64,000 nt of DNA from Promethearchaeota archaeon. Its GTDB lineage: Archaea; Asgardarchaeota; Hermodarchaeia; Hermodarchaeales; Hermodarchaeaceae. The notes under the pieces were generated by a model, which saw only the letters and a program-made list of their open reading frames with translations, did no database searches and was not told the origin of the DNA. Position 1 is the first letter of the stretch, and each line of letters opens with the position of its first letter. Positions 8,360 through 39,090 of this stretch are shown piece by piece. The stretch is from NCBI GenBank assembly GCA_048939625.1, contig JBHLPH010000001.1, positions 32,001 through 96,000 of the forward strand, given 5' to 3'. A program made the position numbers and the translations under genes.

Positions 8360-8812
8360 TTGGATTTGAGTTTGGATGAGTACAAAAAGAAACGTGATTT
8401 TTCAAAAACCCCGGAACCTGAACCAGAGGTAAAACCAGGTGATGGTCAATTATACGTGATTCAACGGCATCAAGCTCGAAACCTCCATTGGGATTTGCGA
8501 TTAGAGCGGCAAGGAGTTTTGGTGAGCTGGGCTGTACCAAAAGAACCACCTACCAAGAAAGGCATACGACGGTTGGCAATCCAAACCGAAGATCATCCGA
8601 TTGAGTACGGGTCTTTTGAAGGAATGATTCCCGAAGGCGAGTATGGAGCTGGACAAGTCGAACTGTGGGATACGGGGACCTTTGAAGTGGAGAAATGGGA
8701 AGAGAATGAGATTATTGTGTTAATTCAGGGAAAGCGATTAGGGGGACGATATTGCCTGATTCGTTTCAAAAAAGTCGAAGATGGATGGCTGTTCTTTCGG
8801 TGTGGGGAATAA
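8360..8812 (+). CDS. Stand-alone LigD 3'-phosphoesterase (PE) domain protein
   Basis: YVIQRHQARNLHWDLRLE, SWAVPK, LAIQTEDHPIEY, GEYGAGQVELWDTG. Confidence 0.95.
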   Translation: MDLSLDEYKKKRDFSKTPEPEPEVKPGDGQLYVIQRHQARNLHWDLRLERQGVLVSWAVPKEPPTKKGIRRLAIQTEDHPIEYGSFEGMIPEGEYGAGQVELWDTGTFEVEKWEENEIIVLIQGKRLGGRYCLIRFKKVEDGWLFFRCGE

Positions 8813-9779: not shown

Positions 9780-11744
9780 CTAATTTTCATTCTCATCGCT
9801 TGATGTGTAATCGAGTAGGCGTTTCTGTTGTTTAGGAGGTTTCCGATCGCGTGATTCTAGAGTTTCTTCAGTCGTGTCATTAAATGGCTGTGCAATCTCA
9901 TCGGAGAGATAAGCATCAAGGGGACGAGATTGCTGTTTGGGAAATTCAATATCTAATGGAACAAGAATTTGTTCAAAGGCCATTTCGAGTTTGCGGATGT
10001 AGTCAGGAATATCGATTTCATCTTTGGTAGCCATATGTGTGGGTTTCACTGTGAAAGTGCGTGCGCCATATCGGAAGGGATTAACCTTGACGAAGCGGAC
10101 TTCGTCCCGTTTTTTCACTTTAATTCCTTTATCACTTAGCTGTTGTAGAGCCTGATATGGTTGTGCCAATGCTGTACCTTTTTCCCGCTCTTTGTCCCCT
10201 TTCCACACTTTGACCCGATACTCCATTTCATCAACTGCAAAATCGCGTCGGCGAAGCCGTGTAATTTCTCGTTGCAAGATGCCTACAATTTCTAGTTTTG
10301 CATCTTCCAATTTGGCGGGGTTTTCGACTAAGGCAAGAGGTTTGACGGCTTCTAAGAAGATTTCTCGAAATCGTGGTGGGGTACTGGACTTTCCTAATGT
10401 AATTCCTTTAATGTCAGGTTTCCCATCCTGGAGAATGCCAAAATAGGCTTTTTTCGCTGAGCTGAAAACACAGAGCTTGTATACTACATCGATGGCGAGT
10501 TTGAGTTTCAGTTCATCTTGAACGATTTTGATTAGCCAATCAATCTGCTTTGGGTTGGGATTGTCCAAAAAGATAGAATCTGTATCACCATAGATAGGAT
10601 GCATGCTGTGTTCAATGGCGAAATCCCAAGTTGTGCGTAATGACCATCGACCGTATGCCATCATTGATTCGGCTAATGGAGGACTTGCCAGACCTTGGAT
10701 GCGAATGGTGACCCCGCCACTGCTGACAAGAAGAAATTTCAAAAGATCAGAAATGGTTCTGGCTTGGGTACGTTGCTTTTGAGGTAAATTCATTTGTCGA
10801 CTGCGCGGTTTGAACCAATGGATTCGGAGGTCTTTGAGAGCCCCGATGAGGGCACTGAAAATTCCTCGTCGTTGGTTACATACATAATGAGGTTCATCGG
10901 GAACTGCATGGGTTTTGCAATCATCATGTTCACAGTCCATAGTTTCATAGGAGAGGTTGTATGTATCAATAAGGCTAGGGTAGAGAGATTCAAAGTCTAA
11001 GACGGTCATGTTGTAATAGGTGCCTGGTGTGGGAGCAATGGTTAGAGCCCCTTCGACACGGTGGGGTTTGTGACCTTTGGTTAGGTCATCTGGATTGGGT
11101 ATTAAGATGCCCAGTTTTCGGTAGGTTGTATGAAGCATGGACCGGATCCATTCGGAGACGCTTCGGCTGGTCAGTGCCCGTCTAAAAGGGATGTTAGCAA
11201 TTCTTGCGAGCATGCTTGCCCATAAAATCTTAGATTCATCATAGGTTGTATTCGATGTAAGTAGAGATTGAGGAATTTCAGGCACAGGTTGAACGGCATA
11301 TCGGAAGTATTCTTTCAAGAAAGCAAATTTTAATGGATCTTGGTCCGCAGTCTCTGCGAAGAGAGTATCGAATTCATCGAGCTCTGTGCTGGGAAAATGT
11401 AAATCGAGAGAGTAGCCTCTTTGTGATTTTATATGGGGGCAGCCAAAACGTTGGTTCTGGTCATAGACATAACTTAGACCTGGATCGATGTTTCGTTCCC
11501 ATTCACGGTCTAGGCGAGTCTGAAGAGAGGAAGGGACCCGCGCAACAGTGATGAACTCGTCTTTCATTAGTTCCTTTCGTTGAACAGCTTCCCCTAACGT
11601 TGCCGGTTGAGCATAGAAGTAGGGCTCAAAATCCAATTTGATGGTGGTGAGTTTTTGACTAGCGGAGTCAAGGAAGGTTAGCATAACTGCGTGATCGGTT
11701 TCGGAATAGACCGCGTCTAATAACCAGAAGCGATTATCCGACAT
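9780..11744 (-). CDS. polB: B-family DNA polymerase, PolB1-like, lacking the 3'-5' exonuclease domain
   Basis: Motif A DFESLYPS; motif C YGDTDS; KKAYFG; altered motif B KFLLVSSGG; C-terminal PIP-like boxes. Confidence 0.9.
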   Translation of the reverse strand: MSDNRFWLLDAVYSETDHAVMLTFLDSASQKLTTIKLDFEPYFYAQPATLGEAVQRKELMKDEFITVARVPSSLQTRLDREWERNIDPGLSYVYDQNQRFGCPHIKSQRGYSLDLHFPSTELDEFDTLFAETADQDPLKFAFLKEYFRYAVQPVPEIPQSLLTSNTTYDESKILWASMLARIANIPFRRALTSRSVSEWIRSMLHTTYRKLGILIPNPDDLTKGHKPHRVEGALTIAPTPGTYYNMTVLDFESLYPSLIDTYNLSYETMDCEHDDCKTHAVPDEPHYVCNQRRGIFSALIGALKDLRIHWFKPRSRQMNLPQKQRTQARTISDLLKFLLVSSGGVTIRIQGLASPPLAESMMAYGRWSLRTTWDFAIEHSMHPIYGDTDSIFLDNPNPKQIDWLIKIVQDELKLKLAIDVVYKLCVFSSAKKAYFGILQDGKPDIKGITLGKSSTPPRFREIFLEAVKPLALVENPAKLEDAKLEIVGILQREITRLRRRDFAVDEMEYRVKVWKGDKEREKGTALAQPYQALQQLSDKGIKVKKRDEVRFVKVNPFRYGARTFTVKPTHMATKDEIDIPDYIRKLEMAFEQILVPLDIEFPKQQSRPLDAYLSDEIAQPFNDTTEETLESRDRKPPKQQKRLLDYTSSDENEN

Positions 11745-11805
11745 TCCTTATACACCTAGCCAGCTTGGAATGGGAGTTCCTTTGGTTTTAACCTTACCCT
11801 AATCG

Positions 11806-25171: not shown

Positions 25172-26935
25172 TTAACCGGTAAAATGCACACTTCCTGTCT
25201 CCTGAATTTCTCGGACCTGTGATTCAAGATGATCAAATGCGGTTGGTAAGTATTCACGAAACCATTGCCATTGCCCCAACTCAGTATTGAATTGACAGCG
25301 TTGTCGAACCTGATTCATGATGAAATCTTTCGCACCACTTCCATAGAATACAGCTGCATCGAAGTCAGTTTGTTCAAGAAAAAGACGATTGAGTTCTCTT
25401 TCTACTTTGAGTGCTAAGCCTATTGGTAAACCAAAAGCAACAATACAGCCTGGAGTTGGATGATGAAATATGGAGCCCCCGTATAGAGGAGCTTCGCGAC
25501 AGCCTGAGAGGAAATTGCGAACTACTTCTTCACTCCCTTCGAGTATGATGAAGAGCGTTTCATTCAGTCCAAGATGATACATTGACAAATCTGGGCGTTT
25601 AAATAACACCTCTTGTGTGATTAATGATTTGAGATGTCGCCGAACAACGTGGACTGATTGACCTAGAATTAAGGCGAGGTCTTCCGCTGTTGTATCAGGT
25701 TTGACCTGCGATAGGATTTGATATGCAAGAGGGTCTAAATCTGCAGGATCGACATTAGGTTCAGCGTACTTGTAAATATAGGGTTGGCTTAGGATCTCCC
25801 CATACCCTTCTCGAATTAGAACATCACGAAGATACCGTACCCAGGCTACCCATCTAAACCTTTCTGACACGGGGACATCTGCTTCGTGGGCGAGATAGCT
25901 TCGAAGGTTATAGCCATTGAAAACGCCACTTAAGGGGTAGAAACGGTAACGGAGAAGATGACCTAACCCTACCAATTCTTGTAACCATTCTTGCAGTCGT
26001 CGAAGGCGTAATCGGGGGAGGGTGTAACTGAGAAGAAAGGGAGCACCACTTCCTCCGAATCTGTGAATTTTCCGGAGGTAGGGACATTGTTCAAAATATC
26101 GTGATACCCTACTTCCAGGGGCAGGATAAGCAAGGACTGCAATATGGTTTAGTCGTATTCGTGGATAGTTTATGCGGAAGTATCGGGAGAAAAGGAGTTT
26201 TTCACGAAAACTGGCCAGGTAGTTGCTTAAGCTTCCTAGAGAATATGATGAAATTTGTTGGAGCTGTCGAAGAGTCGATGTGGGATTTTCGATCATCAAA
26301 TGAAGAACGCGTAATTCTTGTTCGTTCAAGGGGGAGGCATAATTGAGCATAAATGTCTCCAGTAACTCAACATATTCTCGTGAGGTTAGAGGAGTGATCG
26401 CAGGTTCGAGTTCATCGAAATGAGGAAGGATTCGTTTGAGAAATGTTCCTTGGGTTACTCGGTTGAATAGGGGGAAAGAGTACGGTGCATTGTAGATTGT
26501 GTCGCCAAAAAACTGGCGTGGGGAAACTACTTGCCATAATTTCATGAGTTGGCTGAGATTAGGTTGAGCGGTGTGATGATAGGCACATAGGATGCCTAAA
26601 TCCCCACTTTCGGGAACACCCTTTACTACAGAGGGAATCAAGGTTGTGTACATTTCTCGGTAGAGGACTGTTTTAAGAAGGAGAGGACGAGTCAGGAGTT
26701 GAGAAGCGATACGGAATTTTCCCGCTCCGTATGAACCACAGAATCGTGGGCTTGTAAGAGTGTCATCGTCATAAAACTGAATTCGCGTAGGTAGGAGTGG
26801 TGAACGGTCTGTCAACTCAGTGATTTCTCGCTGAATGGTTTTCAATTGCTTCGTGATTTCCTGCCGATGGTGCCGACGTTGATTCGTGGTGAGTTTTTCT
26901 TTTGCAGTATGTTGTGTACGTGCCGTAGTCGCCAA
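25172..26935 (-). CDS. Large tandem Lrp-like wHTH regulator with N-terminal extension
   Basis: wHTH1 LNEQELRVLHLMIENPTSTLRQLQQ..; wHTH2 LDPLAYQILSQV..TAEDLALILGQSVHVVRRHLKSL; each followed by an alpha/beta domain. Confidence 0.72.
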   Translation of the reverse strand: MATTARTQHTAKEKLTTNQRRHHRQEITKQLKTIQREITELTDRSPLLPTRIQFYDDDTLTSPRFCGSYGAGKFRIASQLLTRPLLLKTVLYREMYTTLIPSVVKGVPESGDLGILCAYHHTAQPNLSQLMKLWQVVSPRQFFGDTIYNAPYSFPLFNRVTQGTFLKRILPHFDELEPAITPLTSREYVELLETFMLNYASPLNEQELRVLHLMIENPTSTLRQLQQISSYSLGSLSNYLASFREKLLFSRYFRINYPRIRLNHIAVLAYPAPGSRVSRYFEQCPYLRKIHRFGGSGAPFLLSYTLPRLRLRRLQEWLQELVGLGHLLRYRFYPLSGVFNGYNLRSYLAHEADVPVSERFRWVAWVRYLRDVLIREGYGEILSQPYIYKYAEPNVDPADLDPLAYQILSQVKPDTTAEDLALILGQSVHVVRRHLKSLITQEVLFKRPDLSMYHLGLNETLFIILEGSEEVVRNFLSGCREAPLYGGSIFHHPTPGCIVAFGLPIGLALKVERELNRLFLEQTDFDAAVFYGSGAKDFIMNQVRQRCQFNTELGQWQWFREYLPTAFDHLESQVREIQETGSVHFTG

Positions 26936-27225
26936 GCGTTGATTCGCCCCCTGCTCAGCGGTTACCCTTGAAAGAAATTGAGAGCCCTTGCTTTTTATTT
27001 AAAGTCCACGACGGGGTGTCGATAAATGTTGGAATTCCCTTAGAATTACAATTTAACTGACCTGAATGTTTTTTTTCTATTTTTAGATATTTTTAGGCTT
27101 CTTTAATAAAAAAAGTCGACTTAGACGCCGTTTTATATTATAAATTGAGACGATCCTACTTCTTTACTGGATAAATCTTTCATCAAGAAAAAAATGAAGC
27201 GTGATATTGCTATCAAGAAAAGAGC

Positions 27226-28164
27226 CTATTTTGGAGTACGCCGAGTGAGGGAATGGACTTCGCAGGTTCGGTTTTTGCATTCTGTGCATTCAGAGCTTTG
27301 GTGAACCCAATATTGGTCAAAGCGTTGGATGAATTGTGTGACGAATTCGAGGTTATTGGTCCAGGTGGCTTGCTCGCCGATCCCGGATAGCCCCTTGGCT
27401 GTGAAGTTTGCACTCCCTTCTAGAACCTCTGAATCGTCAATAATGACAGATTTGATGTGCATTTGTGCACAGACAAGAATTTCAATCGATGGAGCTTCTT
27501 GAAGAAGTTTCTCGACGGCTTCTTGGAAGTGCTTGGATGCAGCCCCAAATGCTTCTGGTTCACGAATGATGATTCGAATTTGAACACCTTGGTTAGCTTT
27601 TGTGATTAAGCGGTCGAGGAGGTTTACGTCACAGGATTCCGTTCCAACAGTCACTGTTTTGACATCTGTAAAGTTTTGAACCATGATCCGAATACTTTGA
27701 ATTGCCCGATCTAACATCTCCACTAGGGTGAAGGCAATTGAGATCCCATTAAGGAGTTGATGCTGCATAACTTCTGAACCAGTAGAGGAGGGAAGCGAAG
27801 TTTTTTCATCAGTTAATTCGATTTCTTCGACAGTGTCTGTTTCTGGAGATTCAACTGCTTTTTCAACAGCAGATGCAGCTGGAAGGAGATTTTCGTCGTC
27901 TGGAAAAAAACTGTCAAGGGAGTCAACCATGTGTAATGGGAGGGGTTCTTCACGCCTTAGCGCTTTGGTTATTTCAACGAGACTTCGGGCCCTCTGATAT
28001 GCAAGTTTGGACGCTGAACCTGTAGAATGTTTAGCAAGTTCATTAAACGCTTCGGCAGCCTTTAGAGCAGCGTTGGAGGCTCGTTGAAAATCGCCTTGAC
28101 TCATGAACTTGCGGATCAATTGGAGTGCTTCTTTTGCAACGCGTCCAAGTCGGGCCGTGCTCAT
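27226..28164 (-). CDS. MIT-domain / phospholipase D-family (single HKD) fusion protein
   Basis: N-terminal three-helix MIT-like segment; acidic linker; HIKSVIID..GSANFT motif; C-terminal CxxCxxxxC. Confidence 0.85.
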   Translation of the reverse strand: MSTARLGRVAKEALQLIRKFMSQGDFQRASNAALKAAEAFNELAKHSTGSASKLAYQRARSLVEITKALRREEPLPLHMVDSLDSFFPDDENLLPAASAVEKAVESPETDTVEEIELTDEKTSLPSSTGSEVMQHQLLNGISIAFTLVEMLDRAIQSIRIMVQNFTDVKTVTVGTESCDVNLLDRLITKANQGVQIRIIIREPEAFGAASKHFQEAVEKLLQEAPSIEILVCAQMHIKSVIIDDSEVLEGSANFTAKGLSGIGEQATWTNNLEFVTQFIQRFDQYWVHQSSECTECKNRTCEVHSLTRRTPK

Positions 28165-28436
28165 CTTCTAGCCCCATAATTTTGTTCATTTTAGCTACAC
28201 GTCCGAGCCATAAGAAGTTTAGGAACTGGACGCTAATCGGGTGTCAGGGTTGAGGAGACCAGGCCTTTTTTCGTCAGTCAAACTTCACAAGACCCTTCGT
28301 GCAAAACACATTGTTTTCGTGAATTGTCTACGTGGAACTATGTCAAGAAGAATTAAAATTATCGTGAGCGTTTAGTATTCGAATTTGAATGTCGTGTTTT
28401 GTAACAAGGATATTGTGTTTTACACACATTTTCGTT

Positions 28437-28937
28437 TCACTCTAAAAATAAGAGAAGAACAACAGCTCCAAATCCCAGTCCAAATAGTAGACTGCCAAGT
28501 GTTGTGTAGGACTTCAATTCGAAGAGTGCAGGAAGGACAAGGAACGGGAGCGGGATGATGATGGGAACAAGAAGAAGGGTCCAAGCATAGATAAAAGGGC
28601 GAAGAGAATAATTGATGAGAAGAAAGGTAACAGTGAAGACACTGAGTAGACATATACTGGAATTGAACCGGTGATTGCCCTGCTTAGAGGAAGATTGGGC
28701 TAAATCAGTGAGAAGGAGTCTAGAGAGTTGTGGATCGAAATCTGAAATGGGTTGGTCCGTTGGGATTTTTTGGCGTGACTGGGATGGATTTTCAATTATT
28801 AGAAAGGATTGATTTTGTAGGGTTTTGGATTTGTGGTGGCTTCGATATTTTCGATAGATTCGCAGAGTGATGATAATCTCAAGAAAAAAGATAAACAGAA
28901 TCACCATTGTGAGTAGCGAGGAGCAGTTAAGGTTCAC
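28437..28937 (-). CDS. Small membrane protein
   Basis: About 4 TMs; GTG 28937 after SD AGGTGA, overlapping the M28 gene stop. Confidence 0.65.
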   Translation of the reverse strand: MNLNCSSLLTMVILFIFFLEIIITLRIYRKYRSHHKSKTLQNQSFLIIENPSQSRQKIPTDQPISDFDPQLSRLLLTDLAQSSSKQGNHRFNSSICLLSVFTVTFLLINYSLRPFIYAWTLLLVPIIIPLPFLVLPALFELKSYTTLGSLLFGLGFGAVVLLLFLE

Positions 28938-31900
28938 TGTGATCACCTGCTTCCTTCTGTGTGAAAGTTGATTCTGAGAGTATTTTGAATAGCGGTTGAA
29001 TGAGTTCTCTGTTATTACCTTGTAATAGGATATGAAGTTCTTGTCCTTTCTTTTCCCAGGCAAGGACTACGCGGTCATTGGAATAGCGGTTCTTGCCACT
29101 CTTAGTTAATTCTAACTTCTGGATAACCTGCGCTAGTTCGTGCTTTATTTGAGGAGTAAGGCGGAATTGGTGTTCGGCATCATCTTTACTTGTTCCCCAA
29201 TGAATTTGCATTCCCTGATCTCCCGGGAGAACGAACCGGGGAGATTGAGAGGTATTAGCCTGGTTTTGGTGCTGAGAACGTTTTCCATTTCTTAACCAGC
29301 AAATCCCAATAATACAGAGTGCGATTAGAAATGCAGGAGGTAGCAGAGTGAGAATGGTGTTCACTGTGGAATAGCCAACATAAATTGGACTTTCAACAGC
29401 AAGGATTCGTTGGTCACTCGAGTACAGAGCGAGGGATAATGAACGAATGCCGGTATCCATGATTGCCGTGGGGACATATTGGAGTTGGAGGATGATTGAT
29501 CGGGTCGTGTTACTTTGGACGATGACTTGGGTGAATCCCAAGAAATTCGAATCTGCCATAATGTCAAAGATACGGGTTTGGGTTCCTAAGTTGGTGAGAT
29601 TCACCATGACTGAGAAAAGTTGATTCTGCAGGGTAGATTCGGGCTTTTCAAGAACTGTAAGGATGAAGGCAGGTTCAACAATGAGGGGAACGTGGTCGGC
29701 CAGTAAGAGTAGTGAGGAAGTTGAAATCTGGAGAGAGAGGTTATAAGTGCGTGGTGTGCAGCTTGGCTGTATTTCAAGTGTAATATGAAAGACGTTTTCA
29801 CCTGGAATGAGTAAGAGATTGGGTATAGATGTGAATCCAACCTCTTCAGCACTGAGACTGAGGTTTACGTATACTGTGGACATCCAAGAGGAGTTAATTT
29901 TACAAAAAATTGTGAGAAGTTCACCCTGTGGGATAGATGGAAGATATTCGAGGTGTGCTGAGCATAATGCGCGGGGAACAAAGAGAAACCAACCTTCTAG
30001 CTCCAATGCGGAGTGTGCGTGAATCAAGTAGGGCAGTGGGACTTTTAAAAAGAGTGAGACAGACGCAACCCCTGAACCATTTGTGATAACCTGGAATTCC
30101 ATTGAGGTCCCTTGGACTGTCAGGTTGAGGTGGACTAGTTGATCTGTAAGACCCGTCCAATTGGTGAAATCGCCAACGAATATATAGAGTGTTAGAGTCC
30201 TTCCTACGACTGGTTCTTGTTGGTCGAGTCCTAGTCCGATTCCCATCATTTTATGTTCAATAAGCCAGGCTAGTCCGTTTTCGGCAATTGTCTGTACAGT
30301 TGGGGTGTTTGGTAAATTGGGCCCTAAGAAAAGAACCGGAATCGATGTTAATGCCGGAGGAAAATAAGCTAGCGATGACCAGATTGTATTCCCTACTAAG
30401 ACGAGACTTGAGTTGTGGACTGAAACTGCGTGAACAGTTGAGCAATTTCGGAATAACTGGGCAGCTGCACCATTAAGGAGTGAAGAACTCTGTATGACCG
30501 GGTGAAATACTTTGAGCCCATTCACTGTTAGCAGATTCGCACCAAGATCTGTAAAGGTGAGATGTGCAGAATGGTGTAAAAATAAAGCACCCCCCTTACC
30601 CAAAGCAAGGAGAGGAAGGGAATGTCGTGTTAAGTGTAGAATCATTGCATCATTAGTGAAGACTAAAGGATCAATGATTAGGGCTTGATATTTTCCCAGT
30701 CGTGGGTCTAAGTAATCAGTGATTGTAATGTTTGCGATTTCCTTGAAAACCGGAACCCAATCCGCTGATTTATTCGGAGGTGTGGGAGGCAGATCAAAGA
30801 CAAAATCGAAAACAAGACCAAGGATTAGTTGAGTCGTATTTATGAGGTTAATGAGCTTGCAGTGTGACACTCCATCATAGAGAGAATGTTTGTATGGATC
30901 CGGATATTGATTAGTTGATATAGTGATAGCAGGAATTCCATTGGTATGAAAGGTCCATTCGGAGATGCACCAACCAAAATCGTGGTGGAGGTCCTCAATG
31001 GTTTCAATTCGTGGAGTTTGCGTATCGACTAGTGGAATGTTCAGATTCACTGATGTTTCGAGAAGGCTTTGCTGAAGAGGGGAAACATAATCACCGGAAA
31101 AATAGTATAGGGCAAGGATGGTGGGCCAGACGAGCCCAGCATATGCAATTTCATCGATATTTAAGATAAATGCTGTTGATGGGTTGATGCCTAGCGTGAG
31201 AAGACCATGAGAGAGGAGTTGGTTTGAGCCCCATAAGGATTGGGTCCCGTTTCCTTCTTCACCCCCTAAAAATGCAAATAACACATTCCACTTATTGAAG
31301 GATCCAGGGCAGGCAACAAGGATATGTAAGGCTTCAAGTAGGGTTGCAATCCCAGCAGCATTATCATTAGCCCCATGAGCGATGGTGGTTGATAGACCTA
31401 GCAAGTCATACCGGGCAGAATCGAGGTGACAAGTGATTATTATTGTGGAGGCCGAGGTATTAATGCTCCAGGGAGTAACATAGAGATTCCGTGTCCAGAA
31501 ATTCTGGTAGATGAATGTAGTTCCTGTCCATGTGGCTTTAGGGATGCAAAACCAGTCACTAACGAATGAAGTTCCAATCGACATTAGATATGATGCAATA
31601 AAATCAATTGAAGCATTTGCATCCGGATGGAAGGGATGTCTACTATTATATCCAGCAAGGAAAGTGAGAAGACCCATTAGACGTGTCGAATTTACGCAAG
31701 TGGCCATTTCTCGTTGCCAGTAGGCTAGACTTGAACTATTGGTCAGATAAGCGACGGATGGAGGGGACAATACGGGTGGAGAAACAGAGCAGGAATTCAG
31801 AGAGGGCAGAGCCGCGACTTGTGACCAAGCATTAGGGGTTGTAAGAGACACAGAAAAACACGGTTCTGTGAAAGGTAGCATTGAGGTGATACTACTAAGC

Positions 31901-31944
31901 AGCAGACAAATGAATACCAGCGAAAGAACTGTGACTCGCCTCAT
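28927..31944 (-). CDS. Large membrane-anchored surface protein with M28 metallopeptidase domain and Ig-like repeats
   Basis: CHLDS, GANDNAAG, GGEEG, NIDEI, HSLYD Zn-ligand set; beta-rich C-half; TM near the C-terminus. Confidence 0.88.
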   Translation of the reverse strand: MRRVTVLSLVFICLLLSSITSMLPFTEPCFSVSLTTPNAWSQVAALPSLNSCSVSPPVLSPPSVAYLTNSSSLAYWQREMATCVNSTRLMGLLTFLAGYNSRHPFHPDANASIDFIASYLMSIGTSFVSDWFCIPKATWTGTTFIYQNFWTRNLYVTPWSINTSASTIIITCHLDSARYDLLGLSTTIAHGANDNAAGIATLLEALHILVACPGSFNKWNVLFAFLGGEEGNGTQSLWGSNQLLSHGLLTLGINPSTAFILNIDEIAYAGLVWPTILALYYFSGDYVSPLQQSLLETSVNLNIPLVDTQTPRIETIEDLHHDFGWCISEWTFHTNGIPAITISTNQYPDPYKHSLYDGVSHCKLINLINTTQLILGLVFDFVFDLPPTPPNKSADWVPVFKEIANITITDYLDPRLGKYQALIIDPLVFTNDAMILHLTRHSLPLLALGKGGALFLHHSAHLTFTDLGANLLTVNGLKVFHPVIQSSSLLNGAAAQLFRNCSTVHAVSVHNSSLVLVGNTIWSSLAYFPPALTSIPVLFLGPNLPNTPTVQTIAENGLAWLIEHKMMGIGLGLDQQEPVVGRTLTLYIFVGDFTNWTGLTDQLVHLNLTVQGTSMEFQVITNGSGVASVSLFLKVPLPYLIHAHSALELEGWFLFVPRALCSAHLEYLPSIPQGELLTIFCKINSSWMSTVYVNLSLSAEEVGFTSIPNLLLIPGENVFHITLEIQPSCTPRTYNLSLQISTSSLLLLADHVPLIVEPAFILTVLEKPESTLQNQLFSVMVNLTNLGTQTRIFDIMADSNFLGFTQVIVQSNTTRSIILQLQYVPTAIMDTGIRSLSLALYSSDQRILAVESPIYVGYSTVNTILTLLPPAFLIALCIIGICWLRNGKRSQHQNQANTSQSPRFVLPGDQGMQIHWGTSKDDAEHQFRLTPQIKHELAQVIQKLELTKSGKNRYSNDRVVLAWEKKGQELHILLQGNNRELIQPLFKILSESTFTQKEAGDHSEP

Positions 31945-31968
31945 GGGTTCTTCGCTACCCTGGCGAAA

Positions 31969-31993
31969 TTTGGTTCGTTTATATGCGTTATGG
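31969..31993 (-). promoter_or_regulatory. Promoter (TATA plus downstream CGAACC) of the M28 gene
   Basis: Minus strand CCATAACGCATATAAACGAACCAAA; 21/25 identical to 37523-37499. Confidence 0.65.
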
Positions 31994-32115
31994 TGAGCAA
32001 TGTTACTCGGGCTACAGGAGAGAATCTTGGCGAAAAAATCCGATGTTTAAATATGTATGAGCTGGTTTTTTGCTTAGATAGACTAGAGGAGAAGTATCAG
32101 TTTTGTTCAGAAAAA

Positions 32116-32532
32116 TTAAGTGAGTGGGATGATACGGATGGTATCTTCCCTTTTCTCTAGAAAGCCTTCAGCATGGAGGGTTTTAATTGCCTCTTGCACT
32201 TCTTTTGGAATGAGCCCAGCTTCAATTGAACGTCGAAATACCTCTTGGACGGGTAACCATTTTGGAGTATCTAAGTAATGGGAGCGAAGAAGCTGGAGAA
32301 TTTGCTTTGTTGGACGAAGATCTGTTCCCTGGGGTATTATTCCTTGAAAGACGTATTGTTTTTGTTGAATCTGCTTTTTTGCTTCTTTGGCACTAATGAC
32401 TAAAGTTCCGTGTAATTCGTGAAGCGCGATTTTTACTTTACATCGCGGGCAGAAGTTACTGGGTACTATATCTGGGATGTAGGCGTATTCTAAACAATGG
32501 GGGCATTGGATTACTTTGTACTGTTTGGACAT
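32116..32532 (-). CDS. Zn-ribbon plus C-terminal winged-helix protein (DUF1922-like)
   Basis: CPHC...CPRC; VQEAIKTLHAEGFLE; start set at MSKQYK (32532). Confidence 0.75.
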   Translation of the reverse strand: MSKQYKVIQCPHCLEYAYIPDIVPSNFCPRCKVKIALHELHGTLVISAKEAKKQIQQKQYVFQGIIPQGTDLRPTKQILQLLRSHYLDTPKWLPVQEVFRRSIEAGLIPKEVQEAIKTLHAEGFLEKREDTIRIIPLT

Positions 32533-32533
32533 T

Positions 32534-35500
32534 TTAATCATCATCCAGTGAATCAGTGGAGCTCGTTTCACCGGGTTGATTAGTAAGAAATTGGAGTAAT
32601 TCATGAGATGACTCAAGTATGGTTTTCTGAGAAGGACGAATGCGGCTTAAGAAGTCATTAAGCCGCTTCTGCTGACGTATGAATAAGAAAGCACCTATTA
32701 TTACTCCGAATATCATTACGATGAGGGACCAAATGAGAAGGGAAGTATCAACGCCTCCGATACGGTTCAGGGGATTTCGAACTAATAAGGGGGTTGTCGC
32801 CTGACAAGGAACAAATCCACGTTGTCCTTCGAAGCGAACCGTGATAGTGTAGATTCCAGGTTGGGGTGTCATTATTGTTAGTTGACCGATGCCCATGGAA
32901 TCTGTTTTGATTATAAAAGTGTCGAGGAGGGTGGTATCTTGACTAAGTAATTGCACGGTTAGATTGGCTACAAGACCTAAAGAAAGAGTTTCGTTAGTAT
33001 AAGACAATTGAACTTCTATTTGGAGAGTTGGCTGCAAAAGAATATCTTCTATCTCTAGGGGGGTAACTGTGAGTTTGAGTGTTGGTAGTATAACTCCTTG
33101 TAATGTTATGAGTAATGTTGCCTGGCTTTCATGATAGATATCCGGAGCGTCCAGTTGCCCGAAGAGGACAATGATTAGATGCTCACCGGTGATTTCAGTA
33201 TACTGTGTTGTGAGTGTGATTTCACCATAACCGTTAGAGATGGTGACATGCTGTCGCAATACTCCATCCCAGTAAAGAGCGGCAGTGCCATTGGGAGTGA
33301 GAGACATACCTGTGGTGATAGTGAGTTCGATGAAGATAGTGTCGCCGGCATAGACAGATGTTGAGTTGCTTGAGACGGAAAGGGAGGTGGTATCCCGAAG
33401 GAGAACTTGGAGTGATGAGGATACCCAGGAGTCATGTGTACTGGTTTCAGTGATCATAAGGTGTAAGTCCCGGTATCCGAGAGAACCACCTGCGATCCAT
33501 TGGCAATTAGCTTCACCCCACATATCGGTTGAAGCTGTTACTAAGAGGACTTCACCTTCGTAGAGACCCACTAGTAGATTGGGTAGGAGAGATCCATTGA
33601 GAGCATCTGAGACCTTGATTTGAAAATTGGTTTGGTTGCCGATGAAAAATGTGGAGGAGGGTAATATGTTGATAGTACATGCAAGGGGACGACGACTAAC
33701 TTGAATCATTGTGGTTGTCTGAGAGGCATTATACATTTCGCACTCAGCAAATTTTACACTAATTTGCCATTGTCCTACTTTGTCAGGTGTCCAGGAGCCC
33801 AGTGCAAGACCGGTTTGATTTGTGGTTAAGCTGTCAGAATGATAGGGAATGGAATCACCTGGCCGAGTAAAGTTAAAAGTGACCCTAAAGCCTGTGAGCT
33901 TCGTGCCACTTTCATTATTGAGACTAATTTCTATGGCCACAGGATCAAACAGAACTGGAGTTTCTGGCAGGATATTCTCTACGAGTAATGTGGTATCAAA
34001 CACTATTACCATAATTTGAGTTGTCTTAGTGTGGAAATTACAGTAAGGTACACTGGCATTGACGTGGAGAATGTGGCTGGTAGGTTCAAGATTTTGTGTT
34101 GGAATGGATACGTGATACTGGCTCGAACCGGCATAGCTTGCAGTATAGGTTACTGATGTTGTTAATAATGTCAGTACAACTTCTCCATTTGCAATGGGGT
34201 ATTGGGGCAAACTCGCGCCTGCGAGTCCAACATTGATCGTGACATTGAGCGGAATGCTTCGGGGAACCAAGGTTCCAGGCACAAAGGTAGTATTGAGGGA
34301 AAGAACACCCCATCCTGTACAGAAACTTGATGTAATCGAATAAGCAGGAATTGAGCCGGGGGAAAAGGCGAGAAGTGTGAGGTTCTGAGGACCTAGGGCG
34401 TTTAGATTGACTGGAATGAGCTCTTGAAGCATGAATGAGCCAGGAGGATTAATCCCACAAGAACTGAGAAAGGTGGTGTTGAAGAGGAGGGTTTGGATTT
34501 GAATTTTTTCCGGCAGTTGTCCCCATCTTGTTTCGATTACTGTTGCTGATAGAGCGAAAGGGTCACCAAGAGCAACAGTGCCAAGAGGAGACGAGATTTG
34601 CGTGAGATGTAGGATTGGGCTAACATCCAGATAAGAGAGAAGATTCATGCGTTGAACTAGTTCGAGCCCTAAGCTGATCAGGTATGGGATCCATTTGCCT
34701 TTAGGAAGAAGTGGTTCTGTGACTAATCCTTCATAGGAAAAGGCGGCGAGAAGCCGGTTATGAATGATTGACCAATCAGGACCTTGGAAGGCATTAGGAT
34801 TGAGTCCCATTTCAACCAGGAAATACAAGATTTCGGTGGCATAATAGACGCTAATCAAAGATGCATTCCCGTGGATGTACTGCTTAGCGAACATCGCTAG
34901 TTTATCTCCATTGAGACCCGAAAGGGAAGGATTCAGATAGGCATAAGCGCGTAGCCCAAGCCAGGTTTCAGCGAGATACTCATCAGCAGCTCGCCATTGA
35001 GCAGGCAGAAAAATCGGATGGGCTAGGTCTTGGAAATATTGATGAGTTGCATTATCTTGTAAGCAGCTGGTTAGGTAGGCAAGTATTGCTGATGCATTAT
35101 TCAGGTCTGTGGGTAGTCCACCTAGCCCTTGATGGGCTAATAAATTCCAGCAGGTTGTATCGAAACGGAAAGTTAGATCACTTTCGTGACCAACATAGAG
35201 ATGATGAATTCCCAACATTCCTGTATATTCTGAAGCTGTTGTTTGGCAGGCTTCGATTTCTTGTCGAATATGAAAGGCTCGTGTTGTCCAAGGTTCATAA
35301 TTTAGCCCTAGTTTTGCCATCAATTGGCTATACCCATAGTGATAGAGCGGTCCGAAGGTACCCGTTTCCAAGACGATACGATCAGGCGTTGGACTATCCG
35401 TGTCGATTCCTATAGAAGATGGAAGTTGATGGGCTACAAAAGAGCTGCGACTTGTGGACCAACAATTATCCAGATAGCTCAGAAAGGCTGAAAGGTTCAA

Positions 35501-37459
35501 AAAGTTCAACCCGTCAACCTGCCATAAAATTAGGATTATATCAACGCTTGATAAAAAATCACCAAAAATAACCGGTTCAGTTGCCCCACCCCAGCCCGTT
35601 AAACAATGAGTTAGATATTCGAGTAGAGTAGGTTCAGTAGTGCCTAATCCGCCAGTCAAGGCTAGCGCTTGGGCACCGTACCAAGTTTCATCGGGTGAAT
35701 TGTGAAAATCATGAAGCAAATCACCCCGTCCCCATCCTCCGTTAGGAAATTGATTTGTTAGAATATAGGTGCGACTAGCACTCGAATTGTATATGGGTAA
35801 TTTACCAAGAATAGAAAGGATTTGGAGAGCACAAGAAGTGCCAAGTATCCACTCATCTGAGTCCATGGAATATTTTGTATCGAAGACACTGCTTCCTATT
35901 GGTTCCTCACAGTTAGCAAGGAAAAGAAGAAGCGCCGTTTGATTGATGGCATCTAGTGCTTCAAGTTGAACAAGAGCCTTGAGTGCATGCAGAGTGTCAA
36001 TCAGGCTTGCGCTGAAGCTACCACTCGCTGAGGAATAGAAGCCACCGTATTCAGAATCTAGGGGATTAAGCTCTTGACAGGCAACCACAAAGTCGAGTGC
36101 AGCCTGAACATCAATGGCACTAAGTTGGTCAAGAGCTGATAGGCTTTCTAGCGCAAAACTGGTCGCGGCTAGGGTGGTCTGTTGTGCGTCGATTTCAGTG
36201 AAGAAGCCTCCTGAAATAGCATCTTGACATGAAGCTAGATACGCGCTGATTTGGGTCTGGTTAAATTGGTCAAGGATATTCAAATCCTTAGCCATGAGAA
36301 CACCCATGGCTGTGGTCATGCAACGATCGTTGAGCTGTGAACTTGCTAAATCTTCAAAGAAACCGAGAAGAGGATTATAACAGGTATTTAGCCATGATGC
36401 AAAACTGGAGATGTTCACAGCTAAATCAAAGGATTCAACCAAGTTGGTCACATAATACGAGAAGCGAAGCGATGGCTCAAGCGGATACCCAAACCCACCA
36501 GCACCTTGGATCTTCCAGTATCCTTCGGTTACATTCGAGGGTAATTGCCAATTGGAAAGCGTGTTTCCGAGCCGTTGTTGAAGGGTTGGACGGATTAACC
36601 AGTGTATGAGATTTTCACAAAACTGCTTGCCATGAATATTCAGGTTTTCTACTTGATTGATTCCCCAATAGTAAATGAAGGGAGTATTAACGAGTTTGCG
36701 GAACCAAAGGAGCTGAACACCAGACCCATCAAAGTTTGTTCCTAAAATTTCCGCTTTATCAGGTAATGCTGTTTTACGATAGGCATCGTAATGGACTAGT
36801 TGTGAATAGAGCCCATACCGTCCACTGCTTAGTGGAATGTTATGGGGAAGAGAGAAAATCTGAGAGCTATTAAGGGGTGACCAAAGATATCGTTCAACAG
36901 AGGGAATGAAGTGGGTCACTGGATTAAAACCATAAAGGCGATCTAGCACTTCATGACCATATCCGAGAAGTAAAAGTGGTTGGGAATAATTACTAAGAAT
37001 TTCCGCTGCATTCTGGCTAACGCCGAATGATGCATCACTTGTCCCTACACTCGGTGTAACGATGATTAGATCATTTCCTGAGGTATAGGTTAGGTTATTA
37101 ATGTGCGAGATAGTGGTATTGAAGCCTAGGTTTTGAAAGAAAGTGACCCAAACCTCTACTGGTTCCTGATGGGATTCATTTACATAATCACCATAGATAA
37201 GCATGAGATTACCGAAAGTGAGGAGGGATTGTGCGTTCTCCGGTGCTGGTAGTTCTCTGAAGGGTATTGCTGAATAAGGAGAATATGAAGAAGAGGTTGT
37301 AAGGGGTTGTTGGTATGCTTGAATTTCGTTGGGAGGTGATAATGCCCCCAATCTAGTCTCTGCTTCTTCGAAGAGAGTTAGAGGGTGACCACTAAGAAGA
37401 GGAAGAAGAAAAAGACAAAGGAAAATAATATGACGCAAACAGTATTTGTAACGGGACAT
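32534..37459 (-). CDS. Giant surface protein with prenyltransferase/squalene-cyclase-type alpha/alpha-barrel repeats and Ig-like stalk
   Basis: Signal peptide; repeats CQDAISGGF, CQE..YGGF, NQFPNGGWG; T(N/D)xxG Ig-like repeats; C-terminal TM. Confidence 0.85.
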   Translation of the reverse strand: MSRYKYCLRHIIFLCLFLLPLLSGHPLTLFEEAETRLGALSPPNEIQAYQQPLTTSSSYSPYSAIPFRELPAPENAQSLLTFGNLMLIYGDYVNESHQEPVEVWVTFFQNLGFNTTISHINNLTYTSGNDLIIVTPSVGTSDASFGVSQNAAEILSNYSQPLLLLGYGHEVLDRLYGFNPVTHFIPSVERYLWSPLNSSQIFSLPHNIPLSSGRYGLYSQLVHYDAYRKTALPDKAEILGTNFDGSGVQLLWFRKLVNTPFIYYWGINQVENLNIHGKQFCENLIHWLIRPTLQQRLGNTLSNWQLPSNVTEGYWKIQGAGGFGYPLEPSLRFSYYVTNLVESFDLAVNISSFASWLNTCYNPLLGFFEDLASSQLNDRCMTTAMGVLMAKDLNILDQFNQTQISAYLASCQDAISGGFFTEIDAQQTTLAATSFALESLSALDQLSAIDVQAALDFVVACQELNPLDSEYGGFYSSASGSFSASLIDTLHALKALVQLEALDAINQTALLLFLANCEEPIGSSVFDTKYSMDSDEWILGTSCALQILSILGKLPIYNSSASRTYILTNQFPNGGWGRGDLLHDFHNSPDETWYGAQALALTGGLGTTEPTLLEYLTHCLTGWGGATEPVIFGDFLSSVDIILILWQVDGLNFLNLSAFLSYLDNCWSTSRSSFVAHQLPSSIGIDTDSPTPDRIVLETGTFGPLYHYGYSQLMAKLGLNYEPWTTRAFHIRQEIEACQTTASEYTGMLGIHHLYVGHESDLTFRFDTTCWNLLAHQGLGGLPTDLNNASAILAYLTSCLQDNATHQYFQDLAHPIFLPAQWRAADEYLAETWLGLRAYAYLNPSLSGLNGDKLAMFAKQYIHGNASLISVYYATEILYFLVEMGLNPNAFQGPDWSIIHNRLLAAFSYEGLVTEPLLPKGKWIPYLISLGLELVQRMNLLSYLDVSPILHLTQISSPLGTVALGDPFALSATVIETRWGQLPEKIQIQTLLFNTTFLSSCGINPPGSFMLQELIPVNLNALGPQNLTLLAFSPGSIPAYSITSSFCTGWGVLSLNTTFVPGTLVPRSIPLNVTINVGLAGASLPQYPIANGEVVLTLLTTSVTYTASYAGSSQYHVSIPTQNLEPTSHILHVNASVPYCNFHTKTTQIMVIVFDTTLLVENILPETPVLFDPVAIEISLNNESGTKLTGFRVTFNFTRPGDSIPYHSDSLTTNQTGLALGSWTPDKVGQWQISVKFAECEMYNASQTTTMIQVSRRPLACTINILPSSTFFIGNQTNFQIKVSDALNGSLLPNLLVGLYEGEVLLVTASTDMWGEANCQWIAGGSLGYRDLHLMITETSTHDSWVSSSLQVLLRDTTSLSVSSNSTSVYAGDTIFIELTITTGMSLTPNGTAALYWDGVLRQHVTISNGYGEITLTTQYTEITGEHLIIVLFGQLDAPDIYHESQATLLITLQGVILPTLKLTVTPLEIEDILLQPTLQIEVQLSYTNETLSLGLVANLTVQLLSQDTTLLDTFIIKTDSMGIGQLTIMTPQPGIYTITVRFEGQRGFVPCQATTPLLVRNPLNRIGGVDTSLLIWSLIVMIFGVIIGAFLFIRQQKRLNDFLSRIRPSQKTILESSHELLQFLTNQPGETSSTDSLDDD

Positions 37460-37498
37460 AAGTTGTAAGCTCTTGTGAATGGTTGGCGCAGCGGGGTT

Positions 37499-37523
37499 TT
37501 TGGTTCGTTTTTAAGCATTTTGG
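37499..37523 (-). promoter_or_regulatory. Promoter (TATA plus downstream CGAACC) of the giant surface protein gene
   Basis: Minus strand CCAAAATGCTTAAAAACGAACCAAA. Confidence 0.65.
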
Positions 37524-37524
37524 C

Positions 37525-38355
37525 TCATTGGGTGGAAATTGGGTGTTTTCTATGTGTTGGAAGGAGATGTTGGATTAGATAATAGAGGAGAAGCGTTACT
37601 AATGTGGCTCCAAGAAAGGCTATGATAAATGATTGATAGTTTATCCAATAATGAAAGAGAATATGGATTTGAGGAAAGGCGGGATATGACGAGGAGAGCG
37701 CTAAATAGACTTCATGAACCGGTTGGGAGTTTTCGACTAGGATTGATGTAGCACTGATAAGAATACCAGTATGAAATTCGTAGTAATAGATTTCATACTG
37801 TGGTTGGTTTGAGAAATAGGTGAGTTGCCAGCACAAACAAGGGGCTTCTTTGACATAGAGTGAAACCAAGTCGGTTACCGTAAAGGGTGCTATGCGAAGA
37901 AAATTATTAGTTGCAGGAGCATCGCCGTCAATGCGAATCTGATCGCCTAACTGAGGCCCAGGAAGGATCCACCAAGCAGTGTAAAGGGTGAGACCTGCAA
38001 ACACGTAGCTGCGATTCCAACTGTAGGTGTAGGAGGCGTAATTCGTAGTCCAAGTGGTTCCTTCATCCCATGTAAGGTTCCAAGTTAATGAACCGAGGTA
38101 GTAATGATCATCCGTTGAATTCAGAACAAGTTCTACAATACCCCGATAGGAGTTTGAGAGATTGCCATAACAGGATTTAACCACGAGATGATAATTTCGT
38201 ATTTGATTCTGGCTCATTTGTTTATTGTTTGTTTCTATGGAATCCGAAACTGCAATGGGAAGGAGTGTACTAATTAATACCAATAAAGAGATGAAAAGGA
38301 TTGAAAGCAGTTGGGATTTCCTTTTAGGTCGGAGCCTTTTCATTTCACTAAGCAT
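37525..38355 (-). CDS. Secreted protein with C-terminal TM anchor
   Basis: Signal peptide; YYYEFHTGILI resembles FVIDQDTGIYY of 19898-20764; C-terminal TM. Confidence 0.78.
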   Translation of the reverse strand: MLSEMKRLRPKRKSQLLSILFISLLVLISTLLPIAVSDSIETNNKQMSQNQIRNYHLVVKSCYGNLSNSYRGIVELVLNSTDDHYYLGSLTWNLTWDEGTTWTTNYASYTYSWNRSYVFAGLTLYTAWWILPGPQLGDQIRIDGDAPATNNFLRIAPFTVTDLVSLYVKEAPCLCWQLTYFSNQPQYEIYYYEFHTGILISATSILVENSQPVHEVYLALSSSYPAFPQIHILFHYWINYQSFIIAFLGATLVTLLLYYLIQHLLPTHRKHPISTQ

Positions 38356-38412
38356 GATGTATCACGTGAGAACACTGCCAATGTTCAGGGTGTGGTGGAT
38401 TTTTGTTGTTTT

Positions 38413-39081
38413 TTAGGAATTTCGGTGTGGTTTGAGAAGCTGCCATAATATCAGGGCTAAAACACTACTACCGATAATTAAAGCACCAAGAAGGATGATT
38501 GAAAACGTTGCGCCGGTTAGTGAGTTATATATCAGGTATAAGCAGCCGGCGATAAGAGGAAGGGAAAGTAGCAGTAGTTCCAGAAATGTTTGACTAGGTC
38601 GATTCTTTGCAACAGAGATGACAAGTTGGACATCTGCTTTACTAGGTGATAGACCAATAAAGAAACAGAAGGCGAAATAGATAACCAGCCCTTGATGCAT
38701 AGGGAGGACATGCCAGGAGGAAATTAACAGATACAAACCAAACGCGAGTATGAAAAAGGGAGCAAAAGCCACAAGAATACTGCTTGTAAAAGTCTGAATC
38801 TTATCTACATCAACGATGACACCCCCTACAACTCCTTCGTGTTTTCCAAGAAATATACGATGTTCGAGAATAGGAATACCGGTTAGGCGGCAGAGAAGAT
38901 CATGACAAATTTCATGAAGCACAATACCGGGAAATGCGAGGTAGCGGATAAGGGTCCCAAGACGACAGCTTAGAATATCGATGAATTTCATCAGAGCCAA
39001 GCTAGCGGTGAGAAAAAGGGGAATATAGACCATTGCTTCAAATAACATTGCCAAGACAAAGAGATCAAAAGTTGCTTGCAT
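38413..39081 (-). CDS. Membrane-embedded HExxH metalloprotease (M50-like/DUF3267-like)
   Basis: PGIVLHEICH, AFAPF, PSKAD; several TMs. Confidence 0.82.
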   Translation of the reverse strand: MQATFDLFVLAMLFEAMVYIPLFLTASLALMKFIDILSCRLGTLIRYLAFPGIVLHEICHDLLCRLTGIPILEHRIFLGKHEGVVGGVIVDVDKIQTFTSSILVAFAPFFILAFGLYLLISSWHVLPMHQGLVIYFAFCFFIGLSPSKADVQLVISVAKNRPSQTFLELLLLSLPLIAGCLYLIYNSLTGATFSIILLGALIIGSSVLALILWQLLKPHRNS

Positions 39082-39090
39082 CTTCTCACC

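Follow-up and report, generated by a model that had tools for sequence, protein, structure and literature searches.

The PolB2 enzyme Dpo2 of S. islandicus is an active family-B DNA polymerase (PolB) without exonuclease activity that copies undamaged templates accurately, inserts poorly opposite lesions, and efficiently extends mismatched and lesion-containing termini (PMC8764526). In most PolB2s the first Asp of motif C is missing (PMC7544198), and basal PolB2s with an intact DxD have been reported in TACK archaea by Timinskas et al. (PMC11791011). In eukaryotes, the family-B enzyme Pol zeta is a mismatch and lesion extender (PMC7544198, PMC8764526). Current archaeal family-B schemes comprise B1–B3 and the minor groups of Kazlauskas et al. 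2020 and, in the text available to us, mention no PolB1-derived form from which the exonuclease has been removed. A literature search, which did not cover subscription papers, found no description of an exonuclease-less PolB1 or of the Hermodarchaeota/Bathyarchaeia PolB family reported here. We identified a member of this family, hereafter the short polymerase or short form, in a 64,000-nucleotide stretch (the window) of contig JBHLPH010000001.1 from a Promethearchaeota archaeon of the family Hermodarchaeaceae (GCA_048939625.1).

The short polymerase is very probably a functional accessory enzyme that has no exonuclease and belongs to a distinct subfamily derived from PolB1. On balance we also favour the fuller reading of an active, PCNA-recruited, non-proofreading accessory PolB that likely acts in extension or short-patch repair. 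The confidence we attach to this fuller reading is a blend, which combines our high confidence in an accessory polymerase with a lower one in a specific role as an extender or in translesion synthesis (TLS); the latter, argued by analogy, has in our view slightly less than an even chance of being correct.

The short polymerase resembles PolB1 (Dpo1) in its homologous N-terminal domain and palm–fingers–thumb, in the chemistry of motifs A and C, and in the KxY motif. It differs from PolB1 in having neither the exonuclease domain (about 190 residues, ExoI–III) nor the PolB1 N-terminal extension, in a motif B that reads KxxxVSS(Y/G)G rather than KxxxNA(S/T)YG, and in a Glu instead of an Ala at position 3 of motif A. 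Its C-terminal tail, with two motifs resembling PCNA-interacting peptides (PIPs), is new relative to PolB1, and its gene is an additional paralogue next to a true PolB1 in the genome. With PolB2 it shares the lack of proofreading, the coexistence with replicative PolBs and a Y-family polymerase, and a Val for the Asn of motif B (KWILVASFG in Sulfolobales-type PolB2-like sequences and KMILVSSYG in the DxD type). However, PolB2 keeps a decayed exonuclease domain, whereas in the short form the domain is excised, and the PolB2 gene shares an operon with iRadA and PPB2 (arCOG07300). Neither partner was seen in ten open reading frames (ORFs) of the window (about 3.5–14.8 kb) or within 8 kb on each side of the gene in three relatives, one Bathyarchaeal chromosome and two Hermodarchaeota-type contigs; the rest of the genome was not searched for them. 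The likeness to Pol zeta (Rev3) and Pol alpha would be one of functional analogy only, in that these too are family-B enzymes without proofreading activity that work beside proofreading family-B replicases. In the eukaryotic enzymes the exonuclease fold is still there but inactivated, and C-terminal metal-binding domains bind B-subunits; no such C-terminal domain or B-subunit partner was seen for the short polymerase.

Loss of the exonuclease domain

A Pfam scan of the 654-residue protein finds DNA_pol_B alone (residues 185–594) and no exonuclease domain. The best NCBIfam model is the PolB1 equivalog NF004417, which gives 343 bits over model positions 414–850 of 858, below its full-length equivalog cut-off of 780 bits; the PolB2-type model NF004416 gives 71 bits. 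The closest solved structure is that of Saccharolobus solfataricus PolB1 (1s5j, E=1.6e-64), with query residues 157–602 matched to chain residues 381–827. Over the polymerase domain, BLAST identity is 31–38% to PolB1s and 21–28% to PolB2-like and PolB3 sequences.

We aligned the short polymerase with full-length PolB1s, including the copy from its own genome. It is collinear with PolB1 through QPVPEIP, the segment directly preceding ExoI, and the ExoI site (DIEV in PolB1) aligns to a linker, SLLTSN. Between query residues 165 and 166 there is a gap in which 186–193 PolB1 residues have no counterpart. Relative to the own-genome PolB1, the missing residues are 240–432, which include ExoII (NGDNFDLQY at 320) and ExoIII (YNWQDA at 420). 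The alignment restarts at TTYDESKILWASMLARIANIP, the post-exonuclease helices. A preliminary description of the locus had noted that QPVPEIP is joined to the segment that follows ExoIII and that no exonuclease motifs are visible; the alignment recovers the same junction, and the Pfam result, the missing ExoII and ExoIII residues and the replacement of ExoI by a linker all agree with that observation.

An AlphaFold2 (AF2) model built from 60 family members has a predicted local distance difference test score (pLDDT) of 87 and a predicted template modelling score (pTM) of 0.81, and its N-terminal domain lies mostly at pLDDT 86–97. In this model residues 114–240 contain no beta-strands, so that no RNase-H-like sheet, and hence no exonuclease fold, is left. 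The N-terminal domain leads straight into the post-exonuclease helices, and the palm–fingers–thumb core that follows is complete. The model aligns to 1s5j over 503 residues (Z 34.3, root-mean-square deviation 3.0) and superposes on Thermococcales PolBs (Tgo) from the first residue to the thumb, the alignments to 1s5j and Tgo beginning at model residues 1–7.

Integrity of the gene

The absence of a whole domain, together with the generic or uninformative names given by annotation pipelines ("DNA polymerase domain-containing protein", a generic family-B name or "hypothetical protein"), might suggest a catalytically dead, decaying remnant of PolB1 or an artefact of assembly. Several lines of evidence speak against this. 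The ratio of nonsynonymous to synonymous substitution rates (dN/dS) is 0.096 in one close pair and 0.102 in another, and the gene is under strong purifying selection. A sequence search returned more than 100 full-length homologues of 612–679 residues with identical architecture in two phyla: those at 55–90% identity are labelled Hermodarchaeota, Promethearchaeota or similar, and those at 41–45% come from Bathyarchaeota. Every catalytic residue is invariant across the 113 homologues used for conservation (below), and the structure model is compact and confident. As for assembly, metagenome contigs from three studies of public sediment samples contain the polymerase gene, and contigs of runs not flagged as source bridge the junction (about 11222–11297) with no indel and no joint; one bridging contig set shows strain-level substitutions. 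Decay and artefact are thus effectively refuted, and we give these readings, catalytic death included, almost no weight beside a functional polymerase. Among the public runs that hold the gene no RNA runs are listed.

Two other short sequences were considered as independent exonuclease losses and rejected. P0147 (676 aa) and P0194 (632 aa) fall inside ordinary PolB1 and have a canonical motif B; they lie on contigs of 4.2 and 2.4 kb and are most likely truncated gene calls.

Relation to PolB1 and PolB2

A tree was built on the polymerase domain with Asgard and Thermoproteota PolB1s, PolB3s and PolB2-like sequences, classes being assigned by hidden Markov model (HMM) score, length and motifs. 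The short family forms one clade with a support of 100 in the Shimodaira–Hasegawa-like approximate likelihood ratio test (SH-aLRT) and groups with PolB1 at SH-aLRT 99–100, with PolB2 outside. Forcing the short family together with PolB2 costs 58 units of log-likelihood and is rejected by the approximately unbiased (AU) test (p=0.0014), a result to be read with the caveat of long branches. Within the family the Hermodarchaeota sequences form one clade apart from the Bathyarchaeia-type sequences. At 50% identity the family comprises about 7 clusters, and its scores are set off from those of ordinary PolB1s by a drop from 407 to 285 bits. To judge from alignment and tree, this is a discrete subfamily that descends from a PolB1-type gene in which the 3'–5' exonuclease domain was precisely lost.

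Residues C271, H273, C276 and C289 of a Cys/His cluster in the palm are invariant in the family. The cluster is common to Asgard and Bathyarchaeia-type full-length PolB1s and is not found in PolB3 or in most PolB2-like rows. Because the full-length PolB1s of these groups carry it too, it is inherited, an heirloom of PolB1 and not an innovation; it may be a metal site or a disulphide pair. Sulfolobales-type PolB1s do not have the cluster (residues 271–289).

The short polymerase might instead belong to PolB2, as a basal DxD-keeping TACK type acting in a PolB2–iRadA–PPB2 mutasome. TACK PolB2s with an intact DxD do exist (PMC11791011), proofreading is likewise lost in PolB2, and both the motif-B Val and the DFES of motif A recur in the DxD-retaining sequences L040 and L041. 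The evidence above points the other way: the family groups with PolB1 and the AU test rejects its union with PolB2, the NCBIfam scores lie far apart in favour of PolB1, the Cys/His cluster is of PolB1 type, a separate PolB2-like gene coexists with the short form in the Bathyarchaeal genomes G151 and G236, and iRadA and PPB2 were not seen in the stretches examined. PolB2 membership is disfavoured by these comparisons, and we consider it improbable. The preliminary description had called the enzyme PolB1-derived and of a distinct subfamily, and had set it apart from PolB2 by its motif C. The best NCBIfam and structural matches, the tree and the Cys/His cluster bear out its origin; its standing as a subfamily is upheld by the single conserved clade with its score gap and purifying selection, and its separation from PolB2 by the tree and the AU test.

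L040 (from G234) and L041 (from G242) were themselves examined as possible family members and rejected. At about 660 residues, with the DTD kept and VSSYG in motif B, they look similar at first sight, but they are PolB2-like by both HMM and tree. These Thermoproteota sequences have YGDTDS, a motif B of KMILVSSYG and a motif A of DFESMFPN, and are probably of the kind that Timinskas et al. reported as PolB2s with an intact DxD.

Conservation of the active-site motifs

Residue conservation was assessed in 113 full-length relatives. In motif A, D250, F/Y251, E252, S253, L254, Y255 and P256 are invariant and position 257 is kept in 112 sequences; motif C, YGDTDS, is identical in all 113. K336, V340, S341, G344, R307, K312, K432 and Y434 are also invariant. 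The enzyme therefore retains the catalytic set of Asp250, Tyr255, Arg307, Lys312, Lys336, Asp387, Asp389 and K432xY434. Motifs A (DFESLYPS, with the steric-gate Tyr) and C had been described as intact in this one sequence, and the same is now seen across the family. The contrast drawn at the time with the motif C of PolB2 also holds, since most PolB2s are without the first Asp and the DTD of the short form is intact.

Motif B was reported to read KFLLVSSGG in place of KxxxNxxYG, as we find at residues 336–344. The position of the Asn is occupied by Val in 113/113 relatives. At position 343 most relatives (76) have Tyr, 36 have Gly and one has Phe, and among the sampled rows Gly343 is restricted to Hermodarchaeota-type sequences. 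The conservation of VSSGG together with the deletion, proposed in the preliminary description as a check on orthologues, is accordingly only partial: the deletion and Val-Ser-Ser are kept, the Gly belongs to the Hermodarchaeota clade, and one subclade has Asn.

That subclade came to light in an exhaustive search of representatives at 50% identity. The P0136 cluster (nine members) has the deletion and a canonical motif B, KLLLNASYG, and loss of the exonuclease and rewiring of motif B are therefore separable. The subclade is not basal and falls in a poorly resolved part of the family tree, so that retention of the Asn and reversal to it are indistinguishable. P0136, P0283 and P0285 (locus L135:2778-4649) belong to this Asn-keeping subclade of the exonuclease-less family.

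The motif-B Val common to the short family and PolB2 is read as convergence, because the tree separates the two.

The C-terminal tail and PCNA

The preliminary description listed two PIP-like boxes, QSRPLDAY (residues 605–612) and QKRLLDY (640–646). Both are present, but the register of the proximal one is shifted by one residue: in PIP numbering it is SRPLDAYL at 606–613, with Leu4, Tyr7 and Leu8 in place and a Ser at position 1 for the canonical Gln. The distal motif, QKRLLDYT, has Gln1, Leu4 and Tyr7, with Thr at position 8. The proximal pattern [SG]xxLDx[YF]L is kept in almost all Hermodarchaeota-type members and matches the position where Bathyarchaeia members end, the Bathyarchaeal C-terminus being itself a PIP-like (L/I)(S/T)(D/E)W(F/L). 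The distal pattern Q(K/R)xLxx(Y/F) is present in all Hermodarchaeota-type tails, where it closes a charged, disordered, clade-specific extension. In genus g2 orthologues, "stops inside" calls are read as alignments that overrun the natural stop of shorter tails.

When the polymerase is modelled alone, the distal tail has pLDDT <50. In a complex prediction of residues 590–654 with the PCNA of the same genome, the score is 0.62 against 0.07 for the best control, a mark reached by 58/80 solved complexes and 2/110 mismatched pairs, although these counts are only approximate because an alignment of our own was used. The predicted interface joins tail residues 637–648 to PCNA residues 40–47, 123–128, 224–226 and 242–248, which we take to be the usual PIP pocket. 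The boxes first noticed in one sequence are thus conserved in Hermodarchaeota-type members, and docking on the organism's own PCNA is predicted for the distal one. This prediction may, however, reflect likeness to the abundant solved PCNA–PIP complexes and not binding by this particular copy.

Occurrence and companion polymerases

The short form is found in 18/19 sampled genomes of the family to which the window belongs (f1); the nineteenth has a copy that looks split or shifted. Outside f1 the short form was not found in the remaining 132 of the 151 sampled Asgard genomes; the PolBs seen there are PolB1s of 830–990 residues with 31–40% identity. In Bathyarchaeia it occurs in 22/201 sampled genomes (about 11%). 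A further family member at 41% identity, locus L102 (DATKLC010000111.1), lies on a 5-kb contig that was assigned to the bin of a Krumholzibacteriaceae bacterium but most likely comes from a Bathyarchaeal genome and was mis-binned.

Several f1 genomes show a full-length PolB1 besides the short form. The source, a metagenome-assembled genome (MAG), has a completeness of 87.6% and a total of 2.3 Mb on 83 contigs. Its PolB1 is full-length, with 1230 residues, an exonuclease domain and an intein (contig C45, locus L005:1675-5364, minus strand); the genome also encodes the PolD large subunit DP2, a Y-family polymerase and one PCNA. PolB1 and PolD thus supply the separate full-length replicative polymerase that the preliminary description asked for. 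A Pfam model search of this incomplete MAG found neither PolB2 nor PolB3; PolB1 and the short form alone matched. The intein of the own-genome PolB1 has about 350 residues and a LAGLIDADG-like domain, and sits between polymerase-domain positions 183 and 184; many Asgard PolB1 frames are likewise long (1240–1670 aa).

In G151 (CP070826.1) and G236 the short form stands alongside PolB1 and separate PolB2-like genes. These two genomes have three or four family-B polymerases each, a remarkably rich set for genomes of 1.2–1.9 Mb; that of G236 consists of PolB1, a likely PolB3, a 733-aa PolB2-like protein without DTD and the exonuclease-less form.

Proposed function

The motif-B Asn and Tyr pack against the nascent base pair in the polymerases of RB69 and phi29 and in archaeal PolBs. 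Val and Gly in their place should enlarge and de-polarise the nascent-base-pair pocket, so that distorted termini could be tolerated. In the model we propose, the disordered tail would tether the polymerase to PCNA through the distal QKRLLDYT and possibly also through the proximal SRPLDAYL, and at the clamp the enzyme would synthesise DNA with no possibility of editing. Its likeliest job would be the extension of distorted primer termini after insertion by a Y-family polymerase, or short-patch repair synthesis, and not bulk replication. Extension is proposed by analogy with Pol zeta and because PolB2/Dpo2, a demonstrated extender of mismatches and lesions, carries the same Asn-to-Val change. 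The low fidelity and template relaxation suggested in the preliminary description may apply to the short polymerase; because Dpo2, the nearest characterised analogue with the same substitution, inserts accurately on undamaged DNA, exonuclease loss and an altered motif B do not by themselves predict sloppy insertion.

The main rival is a specialised role in replication. The short polymerase would then be an archaeal counterpart of Pol alpha: acting at PCNA, it would extend primers or fill Okazaki-fragment gaps before PolD or PolB1 takes over, and PolB1 or the PolD subunit DP1 would do the editing in trans. The PCNA-binding-type motifs, the highly conserved core under strong purifying selection and the lack of any PolB3 match in the source genome could all be accommodated in this way, and the Asn-keeping subclade shows that a canonical active site is compatible with the deletion. 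On the other hand, the patchy occurrence, confined to one Asgard family and a minority of sampled Bathyarchaeia, is a better fit for an accessory function; close relatives replicate without the short form, and at two positions that sense the base pair its motif B is unlike the replicative consensus. A Pol-alpha-like role is therefore unlikely in our judgement, though it deserves more weight than any other alternative, and we prefer an accessory polymerase acting in extension or short-patch repair.

More tentatively, and with a little less confidence than in the extender role itself, the family may be seen as a second, independent archaeal family-B extender: excision of the PolB1 exonuclease and convergence of motif B with PolB2 would have produced a prokaryotic analogue of Pol zeta, which the Asgard lineage remodelled further by loss of the Tyr and addition of a second, eukaryote-style clamp motif, Q(K/R)xLxD(F/Y).

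Several observations weigh against the favoured reading of a PCNA-recruited extender. The change in motif B is not essential to the role of the family, since the P0136 cluster has KxxxNASYG. The TLS or extender role is argued by analogy with Dpo2, whose operon partners iRadA and PPB2 are not adjacent to the gene here or in the relatives examined. At the distal PIP-like motif position 8 is Thr, Ser or Asp and thus non-aromatic, and the proximal motif is without a Gln at position 1. Three runs of the complex prediction disagree in their contacts (agreement at least 0%), the partner pLDDT being at least 39 and the tail being of low confidence. PolB1 monophyly is supported at only 70–81 and the stem of the family is long; its placement relative to PolB1 is weakly resolved in the tree, and it could be either sister to PolB1 or nested within it. 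Finally, the gene neighbourhood is uninformative on function: the surroundings of the gene in Bathyarchaeia differ from those in Hermodarchaeota, and context therefore yields no firm functional lead.

If active, the short polymerase amounts to a natural experiment on a family-B core without its editing domain and on a rebuilt nascent-base-pair pocket, for which the family offers three natural states of motif B: Asn/Tyr, Val/Tyr and Val/Gly. The convergence of motif B with PolB2 would point to a specific determinant of mismatch and lesion extension. The family also bears on the division of labour among PolD, PolB1, the Y-family polymerase and the short form in Asgard archaea and Bathyarchaeia. 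As natural exonuclease-free family-B enzymes with relaxed pockets, its members could be a practical basis for developing polymerases that use modified nucleotides as substrates.

Sequence features and gene neighbourhood

The features of the gene are collected in Table 1. A TTAAAA lies in the 61-nt spacer between the upstream alpha/beta-hydrolase gene and the polymerase gene, and a GGTG is found 9–12 nt before the polymerase ATG.

Table 1 Coordinates of the short polymerase gene and its features in the window
Feature	Positions	Strand	Basis
Coding sequence of the exonuclease-less PolB1-derived polymerase (whole)	9780..11744	(-)	uninterrupted 654-aa ORF; stop codon 9780-9782
N-terminal domain, residues 1-155, homologue of the PolB1 N-terminal domain, with QPVPEIP at its end	11280..11744	(-)	PolB1 alignment; AF2 model; structural alignment
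Junction/linker, residues 156-170, in place of the whole ExoI-ExoIII exonuclease domain	11235..11279	(-)	PolB1 alignment; bridging contigs
Motif A DFESLYPS, residues 250-257, catalytic Asp250 and steric-gate Tyr255	10974..10997	(-)	113 relatives
Cys/His cluster C271-x-H273-xx-C276 ... H286-xx-C289, palm insert	10878..10934	(-)	family conservation
Motif B KFLLVSSGG, residues 336-344; Lys kept, Asn to Val, Tyr to Gly	10713..10739	(-)	113 relatives
Motif C YGDTDS, residues 385-390, both catalytic aspartates	10575..10592	(-)	113/113 relatives
KxY primer-contact motif K432-A-Y434	10443..10451	(-)	K432 and Y434 invariant
Proximal PIP-like motif Q-SRPLDAYL, residues 605-613	9906..9932	(-)	conserved in nearly all Hermodarchaeota-type members
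Distal PIP-like motif QKRLLDYT, residues 640-647, in disordered C-terminal extension	9804..9827	(-)	conserved tails; predicted PCNA interface
TATA-like TTAAAA, 41 nt upstream of the ATG	11786..11791	(-)	consensus resemblance read from the sequence

In Hermodarchaeota the polymerase gene follows one for a membrane alpha/beta hydrolase, and beyond it lie a convergent FAA-hydrolase gene and the gene of a stand-alone LigD-type 3'-phosphoesterase (LigD_N); this synteny is stable down to 55% identity. It bears on a further alternative, that the enzyme is the polymerase of a mobile element or virus which moved between Bathyarchaeia and Hermodarchaeota and which it would serve. Family-B polymerases are frequent in archaeal mobile elements (cf. 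PMC4104785), and the patchy spread over two distant phyla and the long stem branch of the family would suit such an origin. Besides the stable chromosomal synteny, however, integrase, capsid and other element genes are absent among the neighbours examined in the window and three relatives, the GC content of the polymerase gene is similar to that of its surroundings, and the Hermodarchaeota sequences form a single clade separate from the Bathyarchaeia type. A mobile-element polymerase is on this evidence a poor explanation, about as improbable as PolB2 membership, and an accessory polymerase encoded in stable chromosomal surroundings is preferred.

The LigD-type 3'-phosphoesterase lies at 8360–8812 on the plus strand (Pfam LigD_N, E=4e-39), about 1 kb past the 3' end of the polymerase gene. 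It is on the opposite strand and convergent with the polymerase, with the FAA-hydrolase gene in between. The arrangement is kept in the Hermodarchaeota relatives L018, L020 and L021 and is not found at the Bathyarchaeal locus L017.

Further along the window, positions 26000–40000 have a strongly positive GC skew (0.15–0.25) that coincides with large minus-strand genes; these include one for a 1005-aa protein with an M28-peptidase domain and one for a 1641-aa protein with prenyltransferase-toroid and Ig-like domains.

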